DNA of 64,000 nucleotides from Candidatus Bathyarchaeota archaeon (GTDB lineage: Archaea > Thermoproteota > Bathyarchaeia > Bathyarchaeales > Bathycorpusculaceae), in NCBI GenBank assembly GCA_963775685.1, contig CAVZJV010000014.1, forward strand, positions 512,001 to 576,000, given 5' to 3'. The position numbers and the translations under genes are program-made. Positions 2,153 through 15,272 of this stretch are shown here, one piece after another. Every line of letters begins with the position of its first letter. Position 1 is the stretch's first letter. Below the pieces are notes generated by a model, which ran no database searches, was not told the origin of the DNA, and worked only from the letters and a program-made list of their open reading frames with translations.

Positions 2153-4610
<2,458 letters not shown>

Positions 4611-7302: not shown

Positions 7303-8713
7303 TTCTGTCTGGTCCCCGGTTTTGACCGCCGCCGCTTCCGCCATCCGCGTCGATCACGTCTATCTCGTCCGCCGCCGTAACTGAAATTGCGGCCTCCGCC
7401 TCCACCGCGCCACCTTGACGTGGTGGTCTTGGACCTCGGTCACCACCGCCAAAGTTTTTACCGCCACCTCTGAACCCGCCTCGATCATCTCTCCGTGGAG
7501 GACGATATTCGCGGCGTTCAAATGACCCTTCTGGTCTGGGTTTAGTTTCTTTTGGTGCTGGCGGTTCTTTGTATTTTTCGTGGATTTCCTCTATGCGTTT
7601 GTTAATGTCAGCTTTTAATTTGTCTCCGATATAGTGTCCTGCTCCGAAAGCGTCTGCTCTGGCTGCGATGGCTAGTTTGCCAGCGATGACTCTTGCGATT
7701 TTTCCTCGTTGCCATCTTTTCGCATCGTGGAGAAGGGTATGCTGAAAGATTAAGCCGTGTTTTGGTGGTCGAGCTCCTGTTTTTAGGCTGCGAAAAAGGG
7801 CTTTTTCTGCGCCTATGACTTGGATGGTGCTTGCTGGTCTCATGGCAAGGTTCTTTAGGCTTCCAGCCATAGCGATTAAACGTGCGCCTAGGAGTGCGCC
7901 TGCAACTGCGCGGACGTTAGGTGCCAGTTCCTCCATAGTGTGGTCAACGTAATCTTCCATATTCTTGCGTAACAGATAGAAGCCAAGCACGTCCTTGGCT
8001 AAGTCTTGTATCATCTCAAGGTCGGCTTCTGCGATGTCTGCGCCCATGGATGATTCGGCCGCTTTGGCAGCAAGCTGGCTTCGTTCTTTTGGAATGTTCT
8101 CATTTTCCAGATTGTCAACGGTAAAGTTTTCCCTATCGCCCAAATTCATAACAAGCCGTGAGTAAGTTTCATGTTTCTCGACTAGGCGATCAAGTTCAGG
8201 GAAGTAAACTCCATACCATTCACGGAGTCTGCCCATAAATAGGTTAACGGTTTGGTCTAAACTATCTAGCGTTTGGATGCTTTGAGCGACAATTAAATCC
8301 CGCTTTCCGGAGGCACCTTTAATCCTTAATTTTGCAAGTTCCAAGCTGACATTGCGGTTCCATGTGTTTAGTTCTTGTCCATCTTGGACAAAACCTGTTT
8401 CGATTGCAATCTCACTCACACGTGAGTGCAACACTGCGGTTTCTGCTGGCTTGGCAACTTCGACGGCGATTTTTAGCTTCTTTTGAGCTTCCTCTGCCAA
8501 TTTGCCGTTTTCAAAAACAAACGTGTCATAACCAACGCTTGCTAGAAGTGTGATTAGTGATGACACTTGGTCGGATATTTTTCCCGATTCGGTTTTGAGT
8601 AAGCTTTTTGCTGCCGCTTGTGTCTTTTTTGGAAACAGCGCTTTTTCTACTAAGCCATTGTTTTCGTCGAAAGCTGCTACGCCGAAGGGAAATTGAACTA
8701 TGAATAGTTTCAT
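7286..8713 (-). CDS. nop5: C/D box RNP subunit Nop5 (Nop56/58) with RGG-rich C-terminal tail
   Basis: Motifs LREWYGVYFPEL, PASTIQVIGAEKALFR, PPKHGLIF, RGKIARVIAGKLAIAARAD. Confidence 0.95.
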   Translation of the reverse strand: MKLFIVQFPFGVAAFDENNGLVEKALFPKKTQAAAKSLLKTESGKISDQVSSLITLLASVGYDTFVFENGKLAEEAQKKLKIAVEVAKPAETAVLHSRVSEIAIETGFVQDGQELNTWNRNVSLELAKLRIKGASGKRDLIVAQSIQTLDSLDQTVNLFMGRLREWYGVYFPELDRLVEKHETYSRLVMNLGDRENFTVDNLENENIPKERSQLAAKAAESSMGADIAEADLEMIQDLAKDVLGFYLLRKNMEDYVDHTMEELAPNVRAVAGALLGARLIAMAGSLKNLAMRPASTIQVIGAEKALFRSLKTGARPPKHGLIFQHTLLHDAKRWQRGKIARVIAGKLAIAARADAFGAGHYIGDKLKADINKRIEEIHEKYKEPPAPKETKPRPEGSFERREYRPPRRDDRGGFRGGGKNFGGGDRGPRPPRQGGAVEAEAAISVTAADEIDVIDADGGSGGGQNRGPDRSAPQS

Positions 8714-8933
8714 TTTATTGGCCCCGATAAACTATGTATTGTCACTGCATTGTCTTAATAAATAGTTTCGCTAACCTAAACCAAAAAGAACCGTTTTCTC
8801 CATGTTACGGCTCCAACACTTGTTACCCAAGGATACTGTACTTGAACATGTTCAGCTATGCAACTCGGCGGATTTGCCAAATGTTTGGACTTAAGGATAA
8901 TACAAAAATCTTCAAGTTCAACCAAAAAGGCTC

Positions 8934-9002
8934 AGCCTGAGTTTAGGGGTGAGCCCGTTCCGGCTTACTTCAATATGGGCCTAAGTTAGAGATAGTCAGG
9001 CT
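8934..9002. ncRNA. Candidate structured small RNA (nested three-stem hairpin)
   Basis: Nested complementarity AGCCTGA/TCAGGCT, GTTTAGG/CCTAAGT and GTGAGCC/GGCTTAC in an AT-rich intergenic region. Confidence 0.35.
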
Positions 9003-9519
9003 CGGAAATCGAATAAAATACTTAAATATTAAGAAAGCTGACTGTTTTATGGTGGGAAGTCCCTGAATAATAAAGCAAGTCAGGCATCATGAGCCTTTTT
9101 TTCTCTCGACCGATAAGAACCGAGTTATTGCCTTGAATTATATCAAGTCAAAAATGCTTAAAGCTTTTCTATATGTTACGATTCTTAATTAGATGACGAA
9201 CATAAGTGCGGTGAGTGTGCCTAGCATCGTTGAGTTCTTAGCAAGGGCTTTTTACTTTATCTGTATCAGCGCTGCAAAGTTTCGTAGAGCAAACGCAGAA
9301 TCTCTTGATCAACTTCATCTTCACAGAAACTCGTTCGGTAGGTGCCTGCTCAAAATCAAAAAACCTTGACGAGTAAAGATTGTGCATGACTCGTATCAAA
9401 TTAAGTGAGTAGTTCCGAACCCGGTTTGGGTCTGAGACCCGCGGTCCCCCAATATTGTGATTTAGCCGTACTTAGCGCTAACATAATGTCTGCTTGAATT
9501 CGGCATAATGGGCATCTAA

Positions 9520-9685
9520 CGACTATAACCAGGCAAGCAGTTAACGAACGGAATATCTTTAACGTTGCTCTTAACAGCTTTCTCTATTTCATTCGCTATC
9601 CGAGCCATCATCTCAACGGCCTCCACAGGATACTGACCCACCGCTGTTTCACCCGAGAGCATAATGGCATCTGACCCTGAGCTCC
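9520..9685 (-). pseudogene. pyk: Pyruvate kinase fragment
   Basis: Manual translation [28 protein letters not shown] matches the PK signature. No N-terminal part is present and stops follow. Confidence 0.85.
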
Positions 9686-10049
9686 TTTTTATCCCAAAAA
9701 GAAAGCCGACTTATGCAATAAACAAACTTTATATAAAAGACAAAATTAACCATCATTTTTCATGAGGCAAATGATGGGTGAACGTCTTTCCCAAAAATCT
9801 AAGGCTAAATAAATATTATAGGCTTATTTCGAATTAAGGTTCTTACTTTAAGAAAAATATGCAAATATAGCAACTTCGGGTCTTTTCAGAAAAACAAGAT
9901 CGCGATTTGCCATTTTCTTGAGCAGAAATTTGGAATCATTGTAATAATTGAATAATAAAATAACTTTGGCAGCCACAGTTTTCAGGTTCTTTATGTTTTT
10001 TATCCTCAAAAAATTTAATAGAACAGCTTTAAATTAAGTTCCAACAGGG

Positions 10050-10979
10050 ATGGGCAAACACATACCAGCTCAGAAAACAAAACCAAAAACAGTTGAAGCC
10101 AAAAATAAAACAGTTACAGTTGGGCTTATCCAAACCACTGTTTCAGAAAATATAGCAGAAAACATGAAAAAAACTGCGGAAAAAATTGAACAAGCTGCTA
10201 AATTAGGCGCCCAAATCGTGTGCCTCCAGGAACTCTACCGCACAAGGTATTTTCCACAGCAAGAAAACCAAGATGTCAAGAGCTTTGCTGAAACTATCCC
10301 CGGCGAATCCACAGAGTTGTTTTCTGGGTTCGCGAAAAAGTACGGAATTGTTATCATTGCGCCCTTGTTTGAGAAAAGCAGGGAAAGCAAATTTTACAAC
10401 ACAGCAGTGGTCATTGGTTACGACGGCGAAATAATGGGCACCTACCGGAAAGCCCACATACCTTTCGACCCTTACTTCTACGAGAAAGACTACTTTGAAA
10501 TGGGCGACACAGATTATCTGGTTTTTGATACATGTTTTGCACGGATTGGGGTGCTCATCTGTTATGATCAGTGGTTCCCTGAGCCAGCTCGCATCAACGC
10601 TTTGAGGGGAGCAGAAATCATCTTTTACCCAACCGCAATTGGCTACGTTAAAGGTTACACCTCAACAGACGGGAACTGGCATGATGCCTGGAAAACAGTG
10701 CAACGTGCCCATGCGATAGCGAACGGGATTCATATTGCCGCCGTTAACCGAGTTGGCGAGGAGAGCGAGTTGGAGTTTTGGGGGGGCTCTTTTATCTGCG
10801 ATAGTTTCGGCAAAATACTCACAGAAGCCAGCATCACAAAGGAAGAAGTGTTGATTGCAACGGTGGATTTGGATAAGAACAAGAAAATTCAGGAAGGCTG
10901 GGGCTTTCTACGCAACAGACGCCCCGACACTTATCAGCAGCTCACAAGAGACAACCAGAAAGGTGCAGAAGATGAGTAG
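10050..10979 (+). CDS. aguB: N-carbamoylputrescine amidase (carbon-nitrogen hydrolase)
   Basis: Motifs CLQEL, YRKAHIP, ICYDQWFPE, YPTAIG, RNRRPDTY. Adjacent to agmatine deiminase. Confidence 0.9.
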   Translation: MGKHIPAQKTKPKTVEAKNKTVTVGLIQTTVSENIAENMKKTAEKIEQAAKLGAQIVCLQELYRTRYFPQQENQDVKSFAETIPGESTELFSGFAKKYGIVIIAPLFEKSRESKFYNTAVVIGYDGEIMGTYRKAHIPFDPYFYEKDYFEMGDTDYLVFDTCFARIGVLICYDQWFPEPARINALRGAEIIFYPTAIGYVKGYTSTDGNWHDAWKTVQRAHAIANGIHIAAVNRVGEESELEFWGGSFICDSFGKILTEASITKEEVLIATVDLDKNKKIQEGWGFLRNRRPDTYQQLTRDNQKGAEDE

Positions 10980-12021
10980 TTCAGAGCGGACATGCCATGA
11001 ACAGGGCTTTTGCATGCCAGCTGAATGGGAAAAACACGACGCTATCTGGCTTGCGTGGCCATATGACCCGACTACTTTCCCAGACAGAGTTGCTCGTGTC
11101 GAAGCCGTTTATGTCCAAATCGTCAAGGAAATTCATGAGGGTGAACAAGTAAATCTTTTTGTCATTGACGAGCCCACCAAACAGAAAGTCACAAAAATAT
11201 TTAAGGAAGCAAAAATCGACCTTGATAGAATCAACTTCTATGTCTCCGATTACTCCGATGTATGGTTTAGGGATTATGGACCAATATTCGTCAAAAATCA
11301 AAACCACGAACTCGCCATGATTCACTGGGACTTCAATTCTTGGGGAGAAAAATATGAAACGCTCCTAAGAGACAAGCAAATCCCAAATGTCATAAACCAA
11401 AAAATTGCAATTAAATGCTTCAAACCCGGCATTGTTCTGGAAGGCGGTTCAATAGATGTCAATGGCAAAGGAACCTTGCTAACGACCGAGCAGTGCCTCC
11501 TTAACAAAAACCGAAATCCTCAGCTTAACAAAAAAGATATTGAAAAATTCTTGTTCGAATATTTAGGGGCAACTAATTTTATTTGGCTCAAAAACGGCAT
11601 CCTAGGCGATGACACAGACGGTCACGTAGACGATTTAGCTCGATTTGTTAGTCCATCTACTATCGTTTGCGCTGGTCAAGACGATGAAAAGGATGTAGAT
11701 TACGAGGCACTATCAGAAAACTATGACATTCTTTGCCAAGCAAGAGACCAAGACGGCGAGAAGTTGAAGATTGTAAAGTTGCCTATGCCCAGAGTTATGA
11801 GCGACGAGAACGAACGACTACCAGCAACCTATACAAACTTCTACATCGGCAACCAAAAGGTCTTGGTTCCCGTGTTTGATCATGAAAACGATAAAAAAGC
11901 CTTATCGATTCTCCAAGAGTTGTTTCCAACCCGCAGGGTTGTAGGAATAAAATGCATTGATTTAGTTTATGGGTTTGGCACGATTCATTGTATTAGCCAG
12001 CAGCAGCCCTGCAGCGTTTAA
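10972..12021 (+). CDS. aguA: Agmatine deiminase
   Basis: Motifs MPAEWE, WFRDYGP, LEGGSI, DDTDGHVD, GTIHCISQQQP. ATG at 10972. Confidence 0.93.
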   Translation: MSSSERTCHEQGFCMPAEWEKHDAIWLAWPYDPTTFPDRVARVEAVYVQIVKEIHEGEQVNLFVIDEPTKQKVTKIFKEAKIDLDRINFYVSDYSDVWFRDYGPIFVKNQNHELAMIHWDFNSWGEKYETLLRDKQIPNVINQKIAIKCFKPGIVLEGGSIDVNGKGTLLTTEQCLLNKNRNPQLNKKDIEKFLFEYLGATNFIWLKNGILGDDTDGHVDDLARFVSPSTIVCAGQDDEKDVDYEALSENYDILCQARDQDGEKLKIVKLPMPRVMSDENERLPATYTNFYIGNQKVLVPVFDHENDKKALSILQELFPTRRVVGIKCIDLVYGFGTIHCISQQQPCSV

Positions 12022-12126
12022 GCGTGTAACATAATCGGTTCAAAGGTCACTATTTAGTTAAGTTTAAACTTAGCACTATACTAATAGCTAAACCCCACAG
12101 TTTGAGGAGATAGGGAGAGTTTAGAT

Positions 12127-14343
12127 ATGGTTAATCAGCCTCCGATTCGCGCACGCGGGGTAAAAGTGCTTAAAGCTGTTTCATCACCGCTTAGGCTGCA
12201 AATTCTCAATTTGCTTTTTGACAAAAGCGCCCTCTCCTATACCGAACTTATGAACCAATTAAAAATGAATCCAAGCCGAGACGCGGGCAGATTTGCGTAT
12301 CATCTAAAATTTATGCTTAAAGCCGACTTGGTTGAGGCGGACGTAGAATCAAAAAAATATTACCTTACTGACTTAGGGAAGATGGTGCTTGACGTGGCTG
12401 ACCGAGTAGAGAAAAAAGCAATTAAGCCCCGTGGCATGTTGGTTCGCACCTCACATTTAACGGTTGAAGAGTTTGATGCAAACAAAATCGCTAACTCATT
12501 GATTAAAGAGGCGAAAGTTCCAGCGGAACTTGCGCAGAAAGCAGCTAAAGAAGCAGAGAAACGCCTCATAAAATCCAAGACAAAGTATCTTACGGCGGCG
12601 TTAATCCGGGAAGTTGTAAACGGAATCCTTGTAGAGAAAGGCTATGAAGACTTCCGCCATAAACTCACACGAGTCGGCATGCCCATCCATGAAGTAACTG
12701 CGTTGATCGAAAACAAAGAATCAAATCAAGACTGCCAAGCCACAATCAACAAAGCAGGACAAACGGTCCTTAGTGAATACAATTTGCTTAACATTTTTCC
12801 CCGAGATATCGCCGACGCGCACCTTTCAGGCGCAATTCACATCGATGGACTAGGCACTTGGGTTCTAAAACCTAACGAAGTCATCCATGACCTTCGCTAT
12901 TTCTTTAAGCATGGTGTTAAGCTCGACAATCCCTTTCAAGTCGCCATGGAAGCCCCCATCGACCTAAAATCCGCCTTATCCATAGCCTTCAACGTAGTCT
13001 TGCATACTAGCAAAGAAACCAACCGCGTTCAAACTTTCAATTACTTCAACGTTTTTCTTGCTCCATATTTGAGAGGCAACGAAGTAACAAAAATAAAAGA
13101 AAATCTGCGTTTATTCATCCAAAACCTCAATCAGCATGCGGAAGCTACTTTGTGCCTTGACCTTGCGGTTCCTAGGCTGTTGGAGGAAAAAGAAGCTATA
13201 GGTCCAAAAGGCAAAACCAATGGCAAATACGGTGACTTTATTCAAGAAAATCAACTTGTTGCTTCACTTATAGTTGATATTTTTATTGAGGAAAGCTCAT
13301 GCAAGCCGATATTTAGTCCCAAAATTATCATAAAAATTAACAGTGCCGCATTAACAGATGAAAAGGCAAAAGTCACTCTGCTCAAAGCACATCATTTAGC
13401 CGCGAAAAGCGGAGTTCCCTTTTTTGCCAACATGACCAATGAAAAGAACGAAAATGTGGCTTTTTCATCTTCAGGCATAAAGTTTGCCTCTGACTTAACG
13501 GGCGACTGGGAAACAGACACGCTACGCACGGGTTGCTTAGGCTGCGTAATAATCAATATGCCTAGGATTGCACAAGAATGCAAAAAAGACAAAAACAAGT
13601 TTTTCGATTTGGTACGGGAACGCTTTGAGCTTGCCGCCCGAGCACTGGGCATAAAGAATAGTGCGCTTAAGCAATTCGGAAAAAACTCGGTTCCGTTCCT
13701 GTTGCAGAAAGCCGACCGCGACACATACTTCCGACTTGAAAACTGCTCTCGCATAGTCAATTTAGTGGGTTTTCGCGAAGCAATCGAAGCCTTTACTGAA
13801 AGAACCATCCATTCGGAAGAGAGCCGCAAGTTAGTCGAAGAAGCCATCGGGAACCTTTTGGCTTTCAAGCAGAAAATCGGCAGAAAATATGGCAAACGCC
13901 TCTACCCTGTCATACTCGGAAACCCTGAAGCTTCAGAACGCCTAGCCCAACTGGACATTGAACGCTACGGTGTGGCTAAGATGAGGTTTTCGGGAAATAG
14001 AGACAAACCATACTATTCAACCGTCAAACGGTTTCAACTGAAACCCGCGGAGTTTTTGGCTTTACAGACAGATGCAATGGAGACAGCACAGAGGTTCAAG
14101 GGACTAAACGCAGGCGGAAACCTGAACATCATTGAGCTCGAAAACGTTGAGTACAAACCTGAGGGTCTGAAGGATTTAACGATCCGTTTAATGGAGAACT
14201 ATGGGATGGATTTTTTCACTTTCAATCGCCAAGTCAGCGTCTGCGACAACTGTAAAAAGAACGGGTTTGGAATGCTGCATAAGTGCCCCTCATGTGGTTC
14301 AATGAGCAACTTAACAGCCTTCGATCGCTTCACTTCAACTTAA
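12127..14343 (+). CDS. ArsR-like HTH + ATP-cone + class III ribonucleotide reductase (NrdD)-like domain; catalytic motifs missing
   Basis: HTH: LKAVSSPLRLQILNLL...FAYHLK. ATP-cone: VRTSHLTVEEFDANKI...IREVV. NrdD body: TRVGMPIHEV, DAHLSGAIHI, INMPRIA, C-terminal CDNC/CPSC. The protein ends AFDRFTST with no RxxGY motif. Confidence 0.85.
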   Translation: MVNQPPIRARGVKVLKAVSSPLRLQILNLLFDKSALSYTELMNQLKMNPSRDAGRFAYHLKFMLKADLVEADVESKKYYLTDLGKMVLDVADRVEKKAIKPRGMLVRTSHLTVEEFDANKIANSLIKEAKVPAELAQKAAKEAEKRLIKSKTKYLTAALIREVVNGILVEKGYEDFRHKLTRVGMPIHEVTALIENKESNQDCQATINKAGQTVLSEYNLLNIFPRDIADAHLSGAIHIDGLGTWVLKPNEVIHDLRYFFKHGVKLDNPFQVAMEAPIDLKSALSIAFNVVLHTSKETNRVQTFNYFNVFLAPYLRGNEVTKIKENLRLFIQNLNQHAEATLCLDLAVPRLLEEKEAIGPKGKTNGKYGDFIQENQLVASLIVDIFIEESSCKPIFSPKIIIKINSAALTDEKAKVTLLKAHHLAAKSGVPFFANMTNEKNENVAFSSSGIKFASDLTGDWETDTLRTGCLGCVIINMPRIAQECKKDKNKFFDLVRERFELAARALGIKNSALKQFGKNSVPFLLQKADRDTYFRLENCSRIVNLVGFREAIEAFTERTIHSEESRKLVEEAIGNLLAFKQKIGRKYGKRLYPVILGNPEASERLAQLDIERYGVAKMRFSGNRDKPYYSTVKRFQLKPAEFLALQTDAMETAQRFKGLNAGGNLNIIELENVEYKPEGLKDLTIRLMENYGMDFFTFNRQVSVCDNCKKNGFGMLHKCPSCGSMSNLTAFDRFTST

Positions 14344-14344
14344 A

Positions 14345-15272
<928 letters not shown>

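Follow-up and report, generated by a model that had tools for sequence, protein, structure and literature searches.

A catalytically dead class III ribonucleotide reductase fused to a winged helix-turn-helix domain: a candidate regulator of nucleotide-metabolism genes in archaea

Results

Domain architecture

We analysed a stretch of 64,000 nucleotides from Candidatus Bathyarchaeota archaeon (assembly GCA_963775685.1, contig CAVZJV010000014.1, positions 512,001 to 576,000), referred to as the window. A gene at positions 12127 to 14343 of its forward strand encodes a protein of 738 amino acids (aa) in which a winged helix-turn-helix (wHTH) domain is joined to an ATP-cone and to a barrel of the class III ribonucleotide reductase (RNR) NrdD that has lost its catalytic residues. 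As judged from the comparisons described below, this fusion protein is best read as a ligand-responsive transcription factor for genes of nucleotide metabolism, with the ATP-cone as the likely sensor and the dead barrel as a scaffold; we put the probability of this reading at roughly 55%. The gene is composed of the following elements, all on the forward strand.

12127..14343 (+), whole gene, wHTH, ATP-cone, dead NrdD barrel and zinc ribbon (open reading frame (ORF) of 738 aa plus stop)
12160..12417 (+), wHTH, residues 12-97 (Pfam, DSSP of the AlphaFold2 model, Foldseek)
12436..12684 (+), ATP-cone of the "VRTS" variant, residues 104-186 (Pfam ATP-cone)
12709..14211 (+), NrdD-like ten-stranded barrel, residues 195-695, catalytic residues replaced (Pfam NRDD, Foldseek)
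12868..12882 (+), relic of the first active-site Cys, KPNEV, with Glu251 in the Cys column (alignments)
13465..13485 (+), relic finger loop SSSGIKF, without the thiyl Cys (alignments)
14212..14304 (+), zinc ribbon, residues 696-726, with C706, C709, C720 and C723 (family alignment)
14305..14343 (+), short tail ...SNLTAFDRFTST plus stop, a remnant of the glycyl-radical loop in which Ser occupies the Gly column (alignments)

Pfam places the wHTH (DUF7347/HTH_5) at residues 14-89, with 31.3 bits for DUF7347 and 27.2 bits for HTH_5 (cut-off 22), and the recognition helix lies at about residues 53-65 ("DAGRFAYHLKFML"). The Pfam ATP-cone covers residues 105-176 (30.2 bits, cut-off 25.8), and NRDD covers residues 195-734 (E 1.8e-63). 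This last match spans profile positions 1-538 of 562, so that the last 24 positions, with the glycyl-radical part, are absent. The score against the NCBIfam NrdD equivalog TIGR02487 is 234.3 bits, under the cut-off of 326.35. The zinc ribbon motif CDNC...CPSC is intact, and the protein ends 15 residues past the last zinc Cys. All four modules named in the original prediction, i.e. wHTH, ATP-cone, NrdD barrel and zinc site, were matched (Pfam; four Cys present). The prediction had also held that the gene leaves no room for the RxxGY motif of the glycyl radical, and this agrees with a protein that terminates at DRFTST and a stop codon (ending at 14343) separated by one base from the frame of the convergent gene pyrB (ending at 14345).

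Loss of catalytic residues

Catalytic columns were mapped by alignment to T4 NrdD, in which we take the relevant residues to be Cys79, Cys290, Asn311 and Gly580 (with G580A as the crystal form), and to the genome's own intact NrdD (P0121), which aligns with the solved NrdDs and has the motifs PYC, SMCCR and SRVVGY. At the finger loop (SSSGIKF), MGCR of T4 aligns to SGIK and MCCR of P0121 to SSSG, and no Cys is present in the surrounding residues 440-462. On the first barrel strand, PYC of P0121 stands opposite PNE (within KPNEV), and the second Cys of the active site is replaced by Glu251. The alignments uphold the earlier claim that SSSGIKF lacks the finger-loop Cys and KPNE its Cys. At the C-terminus, SRVVGY stands opposite DRFTST, which places Ser in the Gly column and directly precedes the stop codon.

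The changes extend to the substrate-contact motifs. The HIHD column of P0121 reads HIDG, N-S-N of its NxN flap reads N-K-E, and loop 2 is shortened by a 7-residue deletion relative to P0121. According to the accessible portion of PMC11226230, the HxHD motif and the NxN flap hold the substrate in PcNrdD; these roles were carried over to the fusion protein by transitive alignment and are presumptive here.

For comparison, we estimated the fractions of family members that keep each residue. A full scan of 50%-identity representatives yielded 1679 proteins at E ≤0.001 and 319 at E ≤1e-30. One alignment of 91 sequences comprised the query, the NrdD of its own genome, three of its close relatives and every listed representative with a length of 640-810 aa; a profile of the N-terminus detected the wHTH in 73 of the 91, and a second alignment was made of 71 wHTH-bearing members. 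Homologues that retain the catalytic Cys and RxxGY would have spoken against a dead enzyme. Cys is found in 0 of the 71 members in the Cys1 column and in 0 of the 71 in the thiyl-Cys column, and Gly occupies the Gly column in 12 of the 71. A Cys lies near the finger loop (within 13 residues) in seven members and near the first strand in five, at positions that always vary. Values for the HxHD and NxN columns range from 0.16 to 0.77, only the first His of HxHD being fairly well kept (0.77), and neither the NxN flap nor loop 2 is conserved across the family. The equivalent of PcNrdD Glu581 sits in the ATPAE loop, at a position that is acidic in 48 of the 71 members, so that part of this contact may persist.

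A search of the genome for a stand-alone glycyl-radical piece found none. Because both active-site Cys, the radical Gly and part of the substrate-contact motifs have been lost, the barrel is, by its sequence, unable to reduce nucleotides. The central claim of the original prediction, a catalytically dead NrdD paralogue with a DNA-binding head, is thus borne out by the Pfam matches, the alignments and the family columns.

Conservation and selection

The original prediction would have been weakened if relatives lacked the fusion, and the architecture was found in at least 119 close clusters of 73-87% identity, with all four Pfam domains in 116 of the 119. The length is 734-747 aa in 114 of the 119 best other clusters, and those sampled terminate in ...FDRF(T/S/A/I)ST. 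Because the length and this end are shared by close clusters, the truncated end is not an assembly artefact. The zinc-ribbon residues C706, C709, C720 and C723 are invariant in the 71 members. Behind the last zinc Cys, 36 of the 71 have at least 21 residues, and these longer tails are recognisably a vestigial glycyl-radical domain, e.g. ...YSRSLAKYLPLRWW...; the other 35, including the window's clade and the ammonia oxidisers, have 20 residues or fewer.

The domains differ in how strongly they are kept. Conservation was calculated as the mean frequency of the top residue for the query and 61 members at 24-44% identity, as follows.

ATP-cone, mean 0.68, 35 of 83 columns at ≥0.8
wHTH, mean 0.53, 15 of 86 columns at ≥0.8
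Zinc ribbon, mean 0.44, 4 of 31 columns at ≥0.8
Barrel, mean 0.37, 26 of 475 columns at ≥0.8
Tail, mean 0.23, 0 of 12 columns at ≥0.8

The conserved motifs are RDAGKFAYH, VRTSR..EEFDR.KI and YLTAPLIRE. R107, F116, I121, R161, Y58 and H59 are invariant across 16 diverse sequences, and in the recognition helix G54, F56, Y58 and H59 are invariant or nearly so. In the barrel, D230, H232, G235, W245, P249, N477-x-P479-R480, P523, G548, E551, R605, D610, Y630 and G663-G664 are still conserved. These positions and the acidic position of the ATPAE loop suggest that a phosphate pocket may survive in the barrel, even though the radical residues, the flap and loop 2 have been lost.

Against six close orthologues, the ratio of nonsynonymous to synonymous substitution rates (dN/dS) is about 0.04-0.065 overall, a rough value because dS is saturated (1.4-2.5); two of eight orthologue pairs were excluded owing to stops on fixed-frame slicing. 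The dN values are 0.02-0.06 in the wHTH and the cone versus 0.11-0.14 in the barrel. The whole protein is under purifying selection, and the wHTH and the ATP-cone are its best conserved parts, the barrel the least.

The ATP-cone and the predicted structure

The cones of the NrdD and the NrdR of the window's genome, and that of the NrdJ of one ammonia oxidiser, carry the usual Lys-(Lys/Arg). In the variant cone of the fusion protein, Thr-Ser occupies these two positions, with an Arg one residue earlier. The same cone, VRTS...EEFDR.KI...YLTAPLIRE, is also found in catalytically intact archaeal NrdDs, including the tandem partner at locus L015. Since it is common to intact enzymes, the cone appears to be an inherited allosteric module and is a conserved candidate for the sensor. 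Binding of ATP or dATP is a conjecture, because the Lys-Arg pair is missing.

An AlphaFold2 model built on the 71-row alignment has a mean predicted local distance difference test (pLDDT) value of 89.3 and a predicted TM-score (pTM) of 0.80. In a Foldseek comparison with the PDB, class III RNRs came out on top, i.e. 9d3x (E 8.2e-26) followed by 8p2s, 4coj and 1h79 (E up to 7.2e-19), with target TM-scores of 0.59-0.76. Local matches were obtained to NrdR (9a6n) and to the ArsR-family protein HlyU, the latter with a target TM-score of 0.70-0.74. By sequence (phmmer), residues 1-190 match HlyU (E 0.023) and PagR weakly. Complex prediction for two copies of residues 1-190 gave a score of 0.02 (mark 0.42), which counts neither for nor against a dimer.

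Gene neighbourhood

The fusion gene converges with pyrB, which encodes the catalytic chain of aspartate carbamoyltransferase.

14345..15266 (-), pyrB, convergent, split by a frameshift here (conserved neighbour)

The convergent and abutting arrangement is found in all 11 loci of the window's family, and pyrB recurs beside the fusion gene in many distant lineages; the position next to pyrB, to which the original prediction had drawn attention, is thus conserved. For comparison, 50 loci from other families were examined, of which L015-L023 had been selected for a second match beside the first. An RNR gene is located within 1 kb in 22 of the 50, i.e. a true nrdD in 14 and the nrdJ of ammonia oxidisers in 8. 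Each of the 14 nrdD genes directly follows the fusion gene in the same orientation, and the gaps range from -93 to +566 base pairs (bp). In the ammonia oxidisers, nrdJ adjoins the fusion gene in 8 of 8 loci, downstream on the same strand in seven and divergent in one. The partners were verified by their scores, which are 520.5 versus a cut-off of 326.35 for NrdD (the L015 tandem partner) and 727.8 versus 399.95 for NrdJ.

pyrB is present within 3.5 kb in 20 of the 50 loci, and an RNR gene or pyrB in 32. The archaeal uridine monophosphate kinase gene pyrH is divergent in three loci at a distance of 62-200 bp (193-207 bits, cut-off 158). A neighbour from nucleotide metabolism (nrdD, nrdJ, pyrB or pyrH) is thus present in 35 of the 50 loci. 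That the gene recurs beside RNR genes of two classes is consistent with a regulatory role in nucleotide supply, in line with the role in nucleotide metabolism proposed earlier. In one locus the fusion gene is followed by nrdD, nrdG and then a convergent pyrB. The simplest history would be an ancestral order fusion-nrdD-(nrdG)-pyrB, from which the window's family lost the middle genes and came to use a separate nrdR-nrdD-nrdG operon.

Two observations concern the surroundings of the gene in the window. The pyrB gene is split into two overlapping ORFs (132 and 180 aa) with the break near 14743-14752; in an alignment with an intact orthologue, frame -3 covers the residues up to 178 and frame -1 those from 175 onwards. 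pyrB is one uninterrupted ORF in 11 of 11 loci of the window's family (306-380 aa from the first start codon), and the break is due either to an indel in the assembly or to a genuine frameshift. Ahead of the fusion gene and in the same orientation, positions 10050-12021 (+) hold an ORF resembling carbon-nitrogen hydrolases and one resembling agmatine deiminases, as judged by reading; both are kept in 5 of 11 related loci, and they overlap if called from the first start codon.

The RNR and NrdR of the same genome

Whether the genome also encodes a separate intact RNR had been raised as a check on the prediction. The genome is 96.9% complete and contains a second NRDD match, which is full length (655 bits), on contig C5. 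The genes on this contig are ordered nrdR (TIGR00244, 129.7 versus a cut-off of 124.65), nrdD and nrdG (NrdG2, 182 bits versus 131), and the operon constitutes locus L001 (G000:C5:128990-133717), with its promoter at about 4040-4130 (-) of L001. The active NrdD (P0121) and the fusion protein are distant paralogues of 25% identity. A search of the genome for a class I or class II RNR barrel found none. The earlier remark that no NrdG lies near the fusion gene also stands, as far as the TIGR02495 model used for all NrdG searches reaches: the window has no NrdG2-type match, and the only one over the cut-off in the genome adjoins the intact nrdD on C5.

Bacterial NrdR binds boxes of a known consensus that occur in tandem at a spacing of roughly 31-32 bp. 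In 30 related genomes the promoter of the nrdR operon keeps a palindrome, ACnCTA-N4-TAGyGT, just past the TATA box, with a second AACACTA about 32 bp downstream. By their sequence these elements resemble the tandem bacterial NrdR boxes, and their simplest assignment would be to the genome's true NrdR. Outside the window, at G000:C14:101680, there is also a perfect palindrome of the box type, ACACTAAATATAGTGT, just past the TATA-like CTTTATAAA; about 90 bases downstream of it lies a tRNA-like 3′ end (GGTTCAAATCC...CCA), and the palindrome may mark a further NrdR target.

Distribution and origin

Within the window's class, Bathyarchaeia, the fusion was detected with a profile of the first 270 residues in 136 of 201 sampled genomes (E ≤1e-40; about 133 at E ≤1e-83) and in 92 of the 121 of high quality. 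Two families of the class are without it (0 of 43 and 0 of 5). In the phylum, 220 of 301 genomes gave a match at the looser threshold of E ≤1e-10, and about 190 at E ≤1e-53. Some families of the phylum are complete or nearly so (43 of 43, 24 of 25, 18 of 18, 11 of 11 and 8 of 8) and others empty (0 of 20, 0 of 10, 0 of 10 and 0 of 6). The survey across Bathyarchaeia proposed with the original prediction thus found the architecture to be widespread there, but its range is far wider than this class. A scan with one genome per species gave 582 relatives; among the best 80, which are close, 70 are labelled Bathyarchaeota or Bathyarchaeia.

The family with 43 of 43 consists, by source names, of Candidatus Nitrosotenuis and relatives, i.e. 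ammonia oxidisers. Five closed genomes of ammonia oxidisers contain no NRDD match besides the fusion, and NrdG2 exceeds the cut-off in 0 of the 5. NrdR exceeds its cut-off in 37 of the 201 class genomes, all from two families: that of the window, with 26 of 27 in addition to the window's genome, and the fusion-less family of 43, with 10 of 43. NrdR and the fusion are therefore partly complementary in their distribution, and the window's family has both. In the sources, the proteins of the Candidatus Nitrosotenuis family are labelled "anaerobic ribonucleoside-triphosphate reductase" or "ArsR family transcriptional regulator", and the first of these labels is in wide use for the fusion genes.

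A FastTree phylogeny of the barrel columns (91 sequences) groups the 17 rows that have no wHTH into a single clade (local support 99%). Six of these are intact enzymes, a small and biased set taken for their similarity to the query, and the other 11 are additional dead forms, mostly with a pair of ATP-cones. The wHTH rows all fall on the other side of the tree, as does one N-terminally short row. This topology, obtained with FastTree only, fits a single origin of the fusion from an archaeal NrdD lineage.

Several NrdD relatives deserve mention in their own right. P0192, P0200, P0201, P0231, P0243, P0246, P0255, P0258, P0259 and P0263 are a second kind of apparently dead NrdD, mostly with two N-terminal ATP-cones in place of the wHTH and with catalytic columns that are not conserved; most have neither the zinc ribbon nor the C-terminal domain, and in the tree they are nested among the intact NrdDs. 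P0194, P0197, P0204, P0230, P0233 and others have lengths of 1000-1700 aa, match the query in 2-5 separate stretches and terminate with an intact ...YSR(I/V)TGY... motif; they likely contain inteins. At L017 (G185:C1), the ORF 8059-13065 (-) holds a family member in an open frame of 1668 aa that runs towards the contig end, the usual 715-aa match being its C-terminal part; the long frame may stem from a fusion at the N-terminus or just lack a stop codon.

Promoter and operator search

Footprinting upstream of the gene revealed a conserved region, within which TTAGTTAAGTTTAAAC is inferred from its sequence to be a B recognition element (BRE)/TATA box.

12054..12100 (+), conserved promoter block TTAGTTAAGTTTAAAC (BRE/TATA-like), then a second conserved stretch around the presumed start of transcription (footprinting)

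A block of about 55 bp is conserved among 64 distinct upstream regions of close relatives, and sequences further upstream are unalignable. The 16-mer of the promoter block has a single occurrence in the genome. A comparison of eight loci yielded no shared k-mer.

Two candidate operators were rejected. GATC is enriched upstream of the fusion gene and nrdJ in five ammonia-oxidiser loci (25 in 1700 bp versus 325 in 68,305 bp), but the motif was chosen post hoc, the genomes are related, and the occurrences are partly the stop codon of the upstream gene. An 8-mer that the nrdR promoter has in common with the promoter of the fusion gene was not kept among relatives and was taken as chance.

Discussion

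The proposed function

The fusion protein belongs to an old archaeal family derived from class III NrdD, in which an ArsR-like wHTH was joined to the front of the inherited ATP-cone. As the proposed transcription factor it would bind DNA via the wHTH, the NrdD-type barrel probably holding it together as a dimer or higher oligomer, and would regulate the transcription of nucleotide-supply genes. A ligand of the ATP-cone, most plausibly an adenine nucleotide, would alter the conformation or the oligomeric state, and hence DNA binding, as is known from bacterial NrdR. The window's lineage would have lost its adjacent nrdD, and the candidate targets would be pyrB and the gene's own promoter locally, and distant genes.

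The original prediction of a sensor of the nucleotide pool survives in part. Sensing at the specificity site is not backed, because loop 2 has the 7-residue deletion and neither loop 2 nor the NxN flap is conserved; the ATP-cone is a conserved candidate, albeit without the Lys-Arg pair. The likeness to NrdR likewise holds in that a DNA-binding module is joined to an ATP-cone beside RNR genes; since the same genome has a true NrdR, the fusion protein is not simply an NrdR replacement.

Several results weigh against a nucleotide-responsive regulator of this kind. The genome has a true NrdR and NrdR-box-like palindromes at its nrdR-nrdD-nrdG operon, and the control of RNR there may need no fusion protein. 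No operator was found: footprinting of the 64 close upstream regions gave only a block like a core promoter, neither this block nor the window's own inverted repeat has a second copy in the genome, and an enumeration in 52 diverse upstream regions found no inverted repeat above shuffles. In the cone, Thr-Ser replaces the phosphate-binding Lys-Arg of canonical cones. Neither an RNR gene nor pyrB is nearby in 18 of the 50 loci (3 of the 18 have the divergent pyrH), one locus group lies among the housekeeping genes PAN, TGT-C2/PUA, aTrm56, TFE and thiolase, and the synteny count is partly biased because L015-L023 were chosen for an adjacent second match. The tail-to-tail arrangement of the fusion gene and pyrB is atypical for a regulator and its target, and the overlapping or nearly abutting nrdD starts in four loci (-93 to +32 bp) are just as compatible with a partnership between proteins.

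Such a partnership is the first alternative: the protein might be a non-catalytic regulatory subunit that acts by contact with an active RNR, e.g. as a heterodimer with NrdD, its wHTH being secondary or serving protein contacts. Dead paralogues often pair with active relatives, the barrel is still under purifying selection, and in 14 loci the fusion gene immediately precedes nrdD as its co-directional tandem duplicate, the short gaps in four of them suggesting co-transcription. In contrast, the five closed ammonia-oxidiser genomes have no other NrdD, the neighbour there being the class II NrdJ, which disfavours a heterodimer as the general function. In the window's family, moreover, the active NrdD is the distant paralogue encoded elsewhere. 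The recognition helix is among the most conserved segments, which is hard to account for without DNA binding. We regard a regulatory subunit as unlikely.

A second alternative, which appears equally improbable, keeps DNA binding and drops the nucleotide: the protein would be a regulator or a chromatin-associated protein responding to another signal, with cone and barrel used for oligomerisation or as a scaffold and with the gene links as inherited order. The change of Lys-Arg to Thr-Ser, the unconserved loop 2 and NxN flap, the housekeeping locus group and the 18 loci without an RNR gene or pyrB are in its favour. Yet the cone is the most conserved domain, and its variant is kept in intact NrdDs, in which an allosteric role is expected. 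Mere inheritance of gene order also fits poorly with neighbours that switch between nrdD, nrdJ, pyrB and pyrH while a gene of nucleotide metabolism is retained in 35 of the 50 loci.

That the protein is still an enzyme, with a chemistry other than radical reduction in its relic active site, seems very improbable. The barrel motifs shared with NrdD (N477-x-P479-R480, R605, D610, Y630 and G663-G664) persist and the ATPAE loop is acidic in 48 of the 71 members, but the barrel is the least conserved domain (0.37), no replacement residue is conserved at the Cys and Gly sites, the NxN flap is unconserved and the C-terminal domain is gone in half of the family. A decaying pseudogene or an assembly artefact is scarcely credible: the frameshift in the neighbouring pyrB indicates that indel errors or decay do occur locally, but an intact frame of the same length in 114 of 119 close clusters, the fusion in 136 of the 201 class genomes, dN far below dS and a confident structure model (pLDDT 89.3) all stand against it.

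Relation to known systems

In bacterial NrdR, a ligand at the cone alters the oligomer and DNA binding. Like the fusion protein, NrdR combines a DNA-binding module with an ATP-cone and is encoded beside RNR genes. In contrast, its N-terminal module is a zinc ribbon, whereas the fusion protein has a wHTH and, with 738 aa, a whole dead RNR barrel; TIGR00244 is absent from the 11 NCBIfam matches of the fusion protein at E ≤1, and its cone is without Lys-Arg. The cone mechanism of NrdR is touched on in the accessible portion of PMC11226230.

Class III NrdD shares the homologous barrel, the ATP-cone and the zinc ribbon, and in the sampled tree the sister group of the family is an archaeal NrdD lineage that also has this cone variant; the fusion protein differs from it in the loss of the thiyl Cys, the second Cys and the radical Gly, in the degraded HxHD and NxN motifs and in the added wHTH. 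The wHTH regulators of the ArsR/SmtB type (HlyU, PagR) have the same N-terminal fold with weak sequence similarity, but the wHTH makes up only the first 100 of the 738 residues, and the metalloregulator subfamily NF033788 scores 30.3 versus a cut-off of 55. As read from the translation, residues 1-200 contain no Cys, so that a thiolate metal site of the ArsR/SmtB type is absent. Because it lacks tested defining features of NrdD, of NrdR and of the ArsR metal sensors, the protein was assigned to none of these groups.

The reuse of an enzyme fold for regulation has precedents. PyrR, with a phosphoribosyltransferase fold, regulates pyr genes, and PutA and BirA are dual proteins; in these, too, the fold of a pathway's enzyme serves to regulate that pathway. 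However, they keep catalysis or bind RNA, whereas in the fusion protein catalysis is lost and a DNA-binding domain has been fused.

No description of a wHTH-ATP-cone-dead-NrdD protein was found in the full-text literature searched, subscription journals and supplements being outside its reach, and the accessible portions of two papers on RNR evolution (PMC3019208, PMC9531940) contain no such architecture. The family is uncharacterised, and its sequences stand in databases under misleading or generic names. The label "anaerobic ribonucleoside-triphosphate reductase" wrongly implies anaerobic synthesis of deoxynucleoside triphosphates (dNTPs) in metabolic reconstructions, including those of strict aerobes.

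Implications

To our knowledge, the regulation of RNR and of dNTP pools is largely unknown in most archaea. A conserved candidate regulator encoded beside nrdD, nrdJ, pyrB and pyrH, and present in cultured ammonia oxidisers (Candidatus Nitrosotenuis), makes this question testable. A bolder version of the proposal, which we advance tentatively and at less than even odds, sees in the fusion protein the archaeal counterpart of NrdR, with a fossil enzyme as its raw material. Born by duplication of an ancestral class III RNR, it would act throughout the phylum as the master regulator of the supply of deoxynucleotides and pyrimidines, would read nucleotide pools via the cone and perhaps a relic pocket, and would control whichever RNR class is used, including the B12-dependent enzyme of aerobic ammonia oxidisers, in which it would persist as a molecular relic of an anaerobic past. 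If the proposed function is true, the family would be a clear case of a radical enzyme scaffold turned transcription factor.

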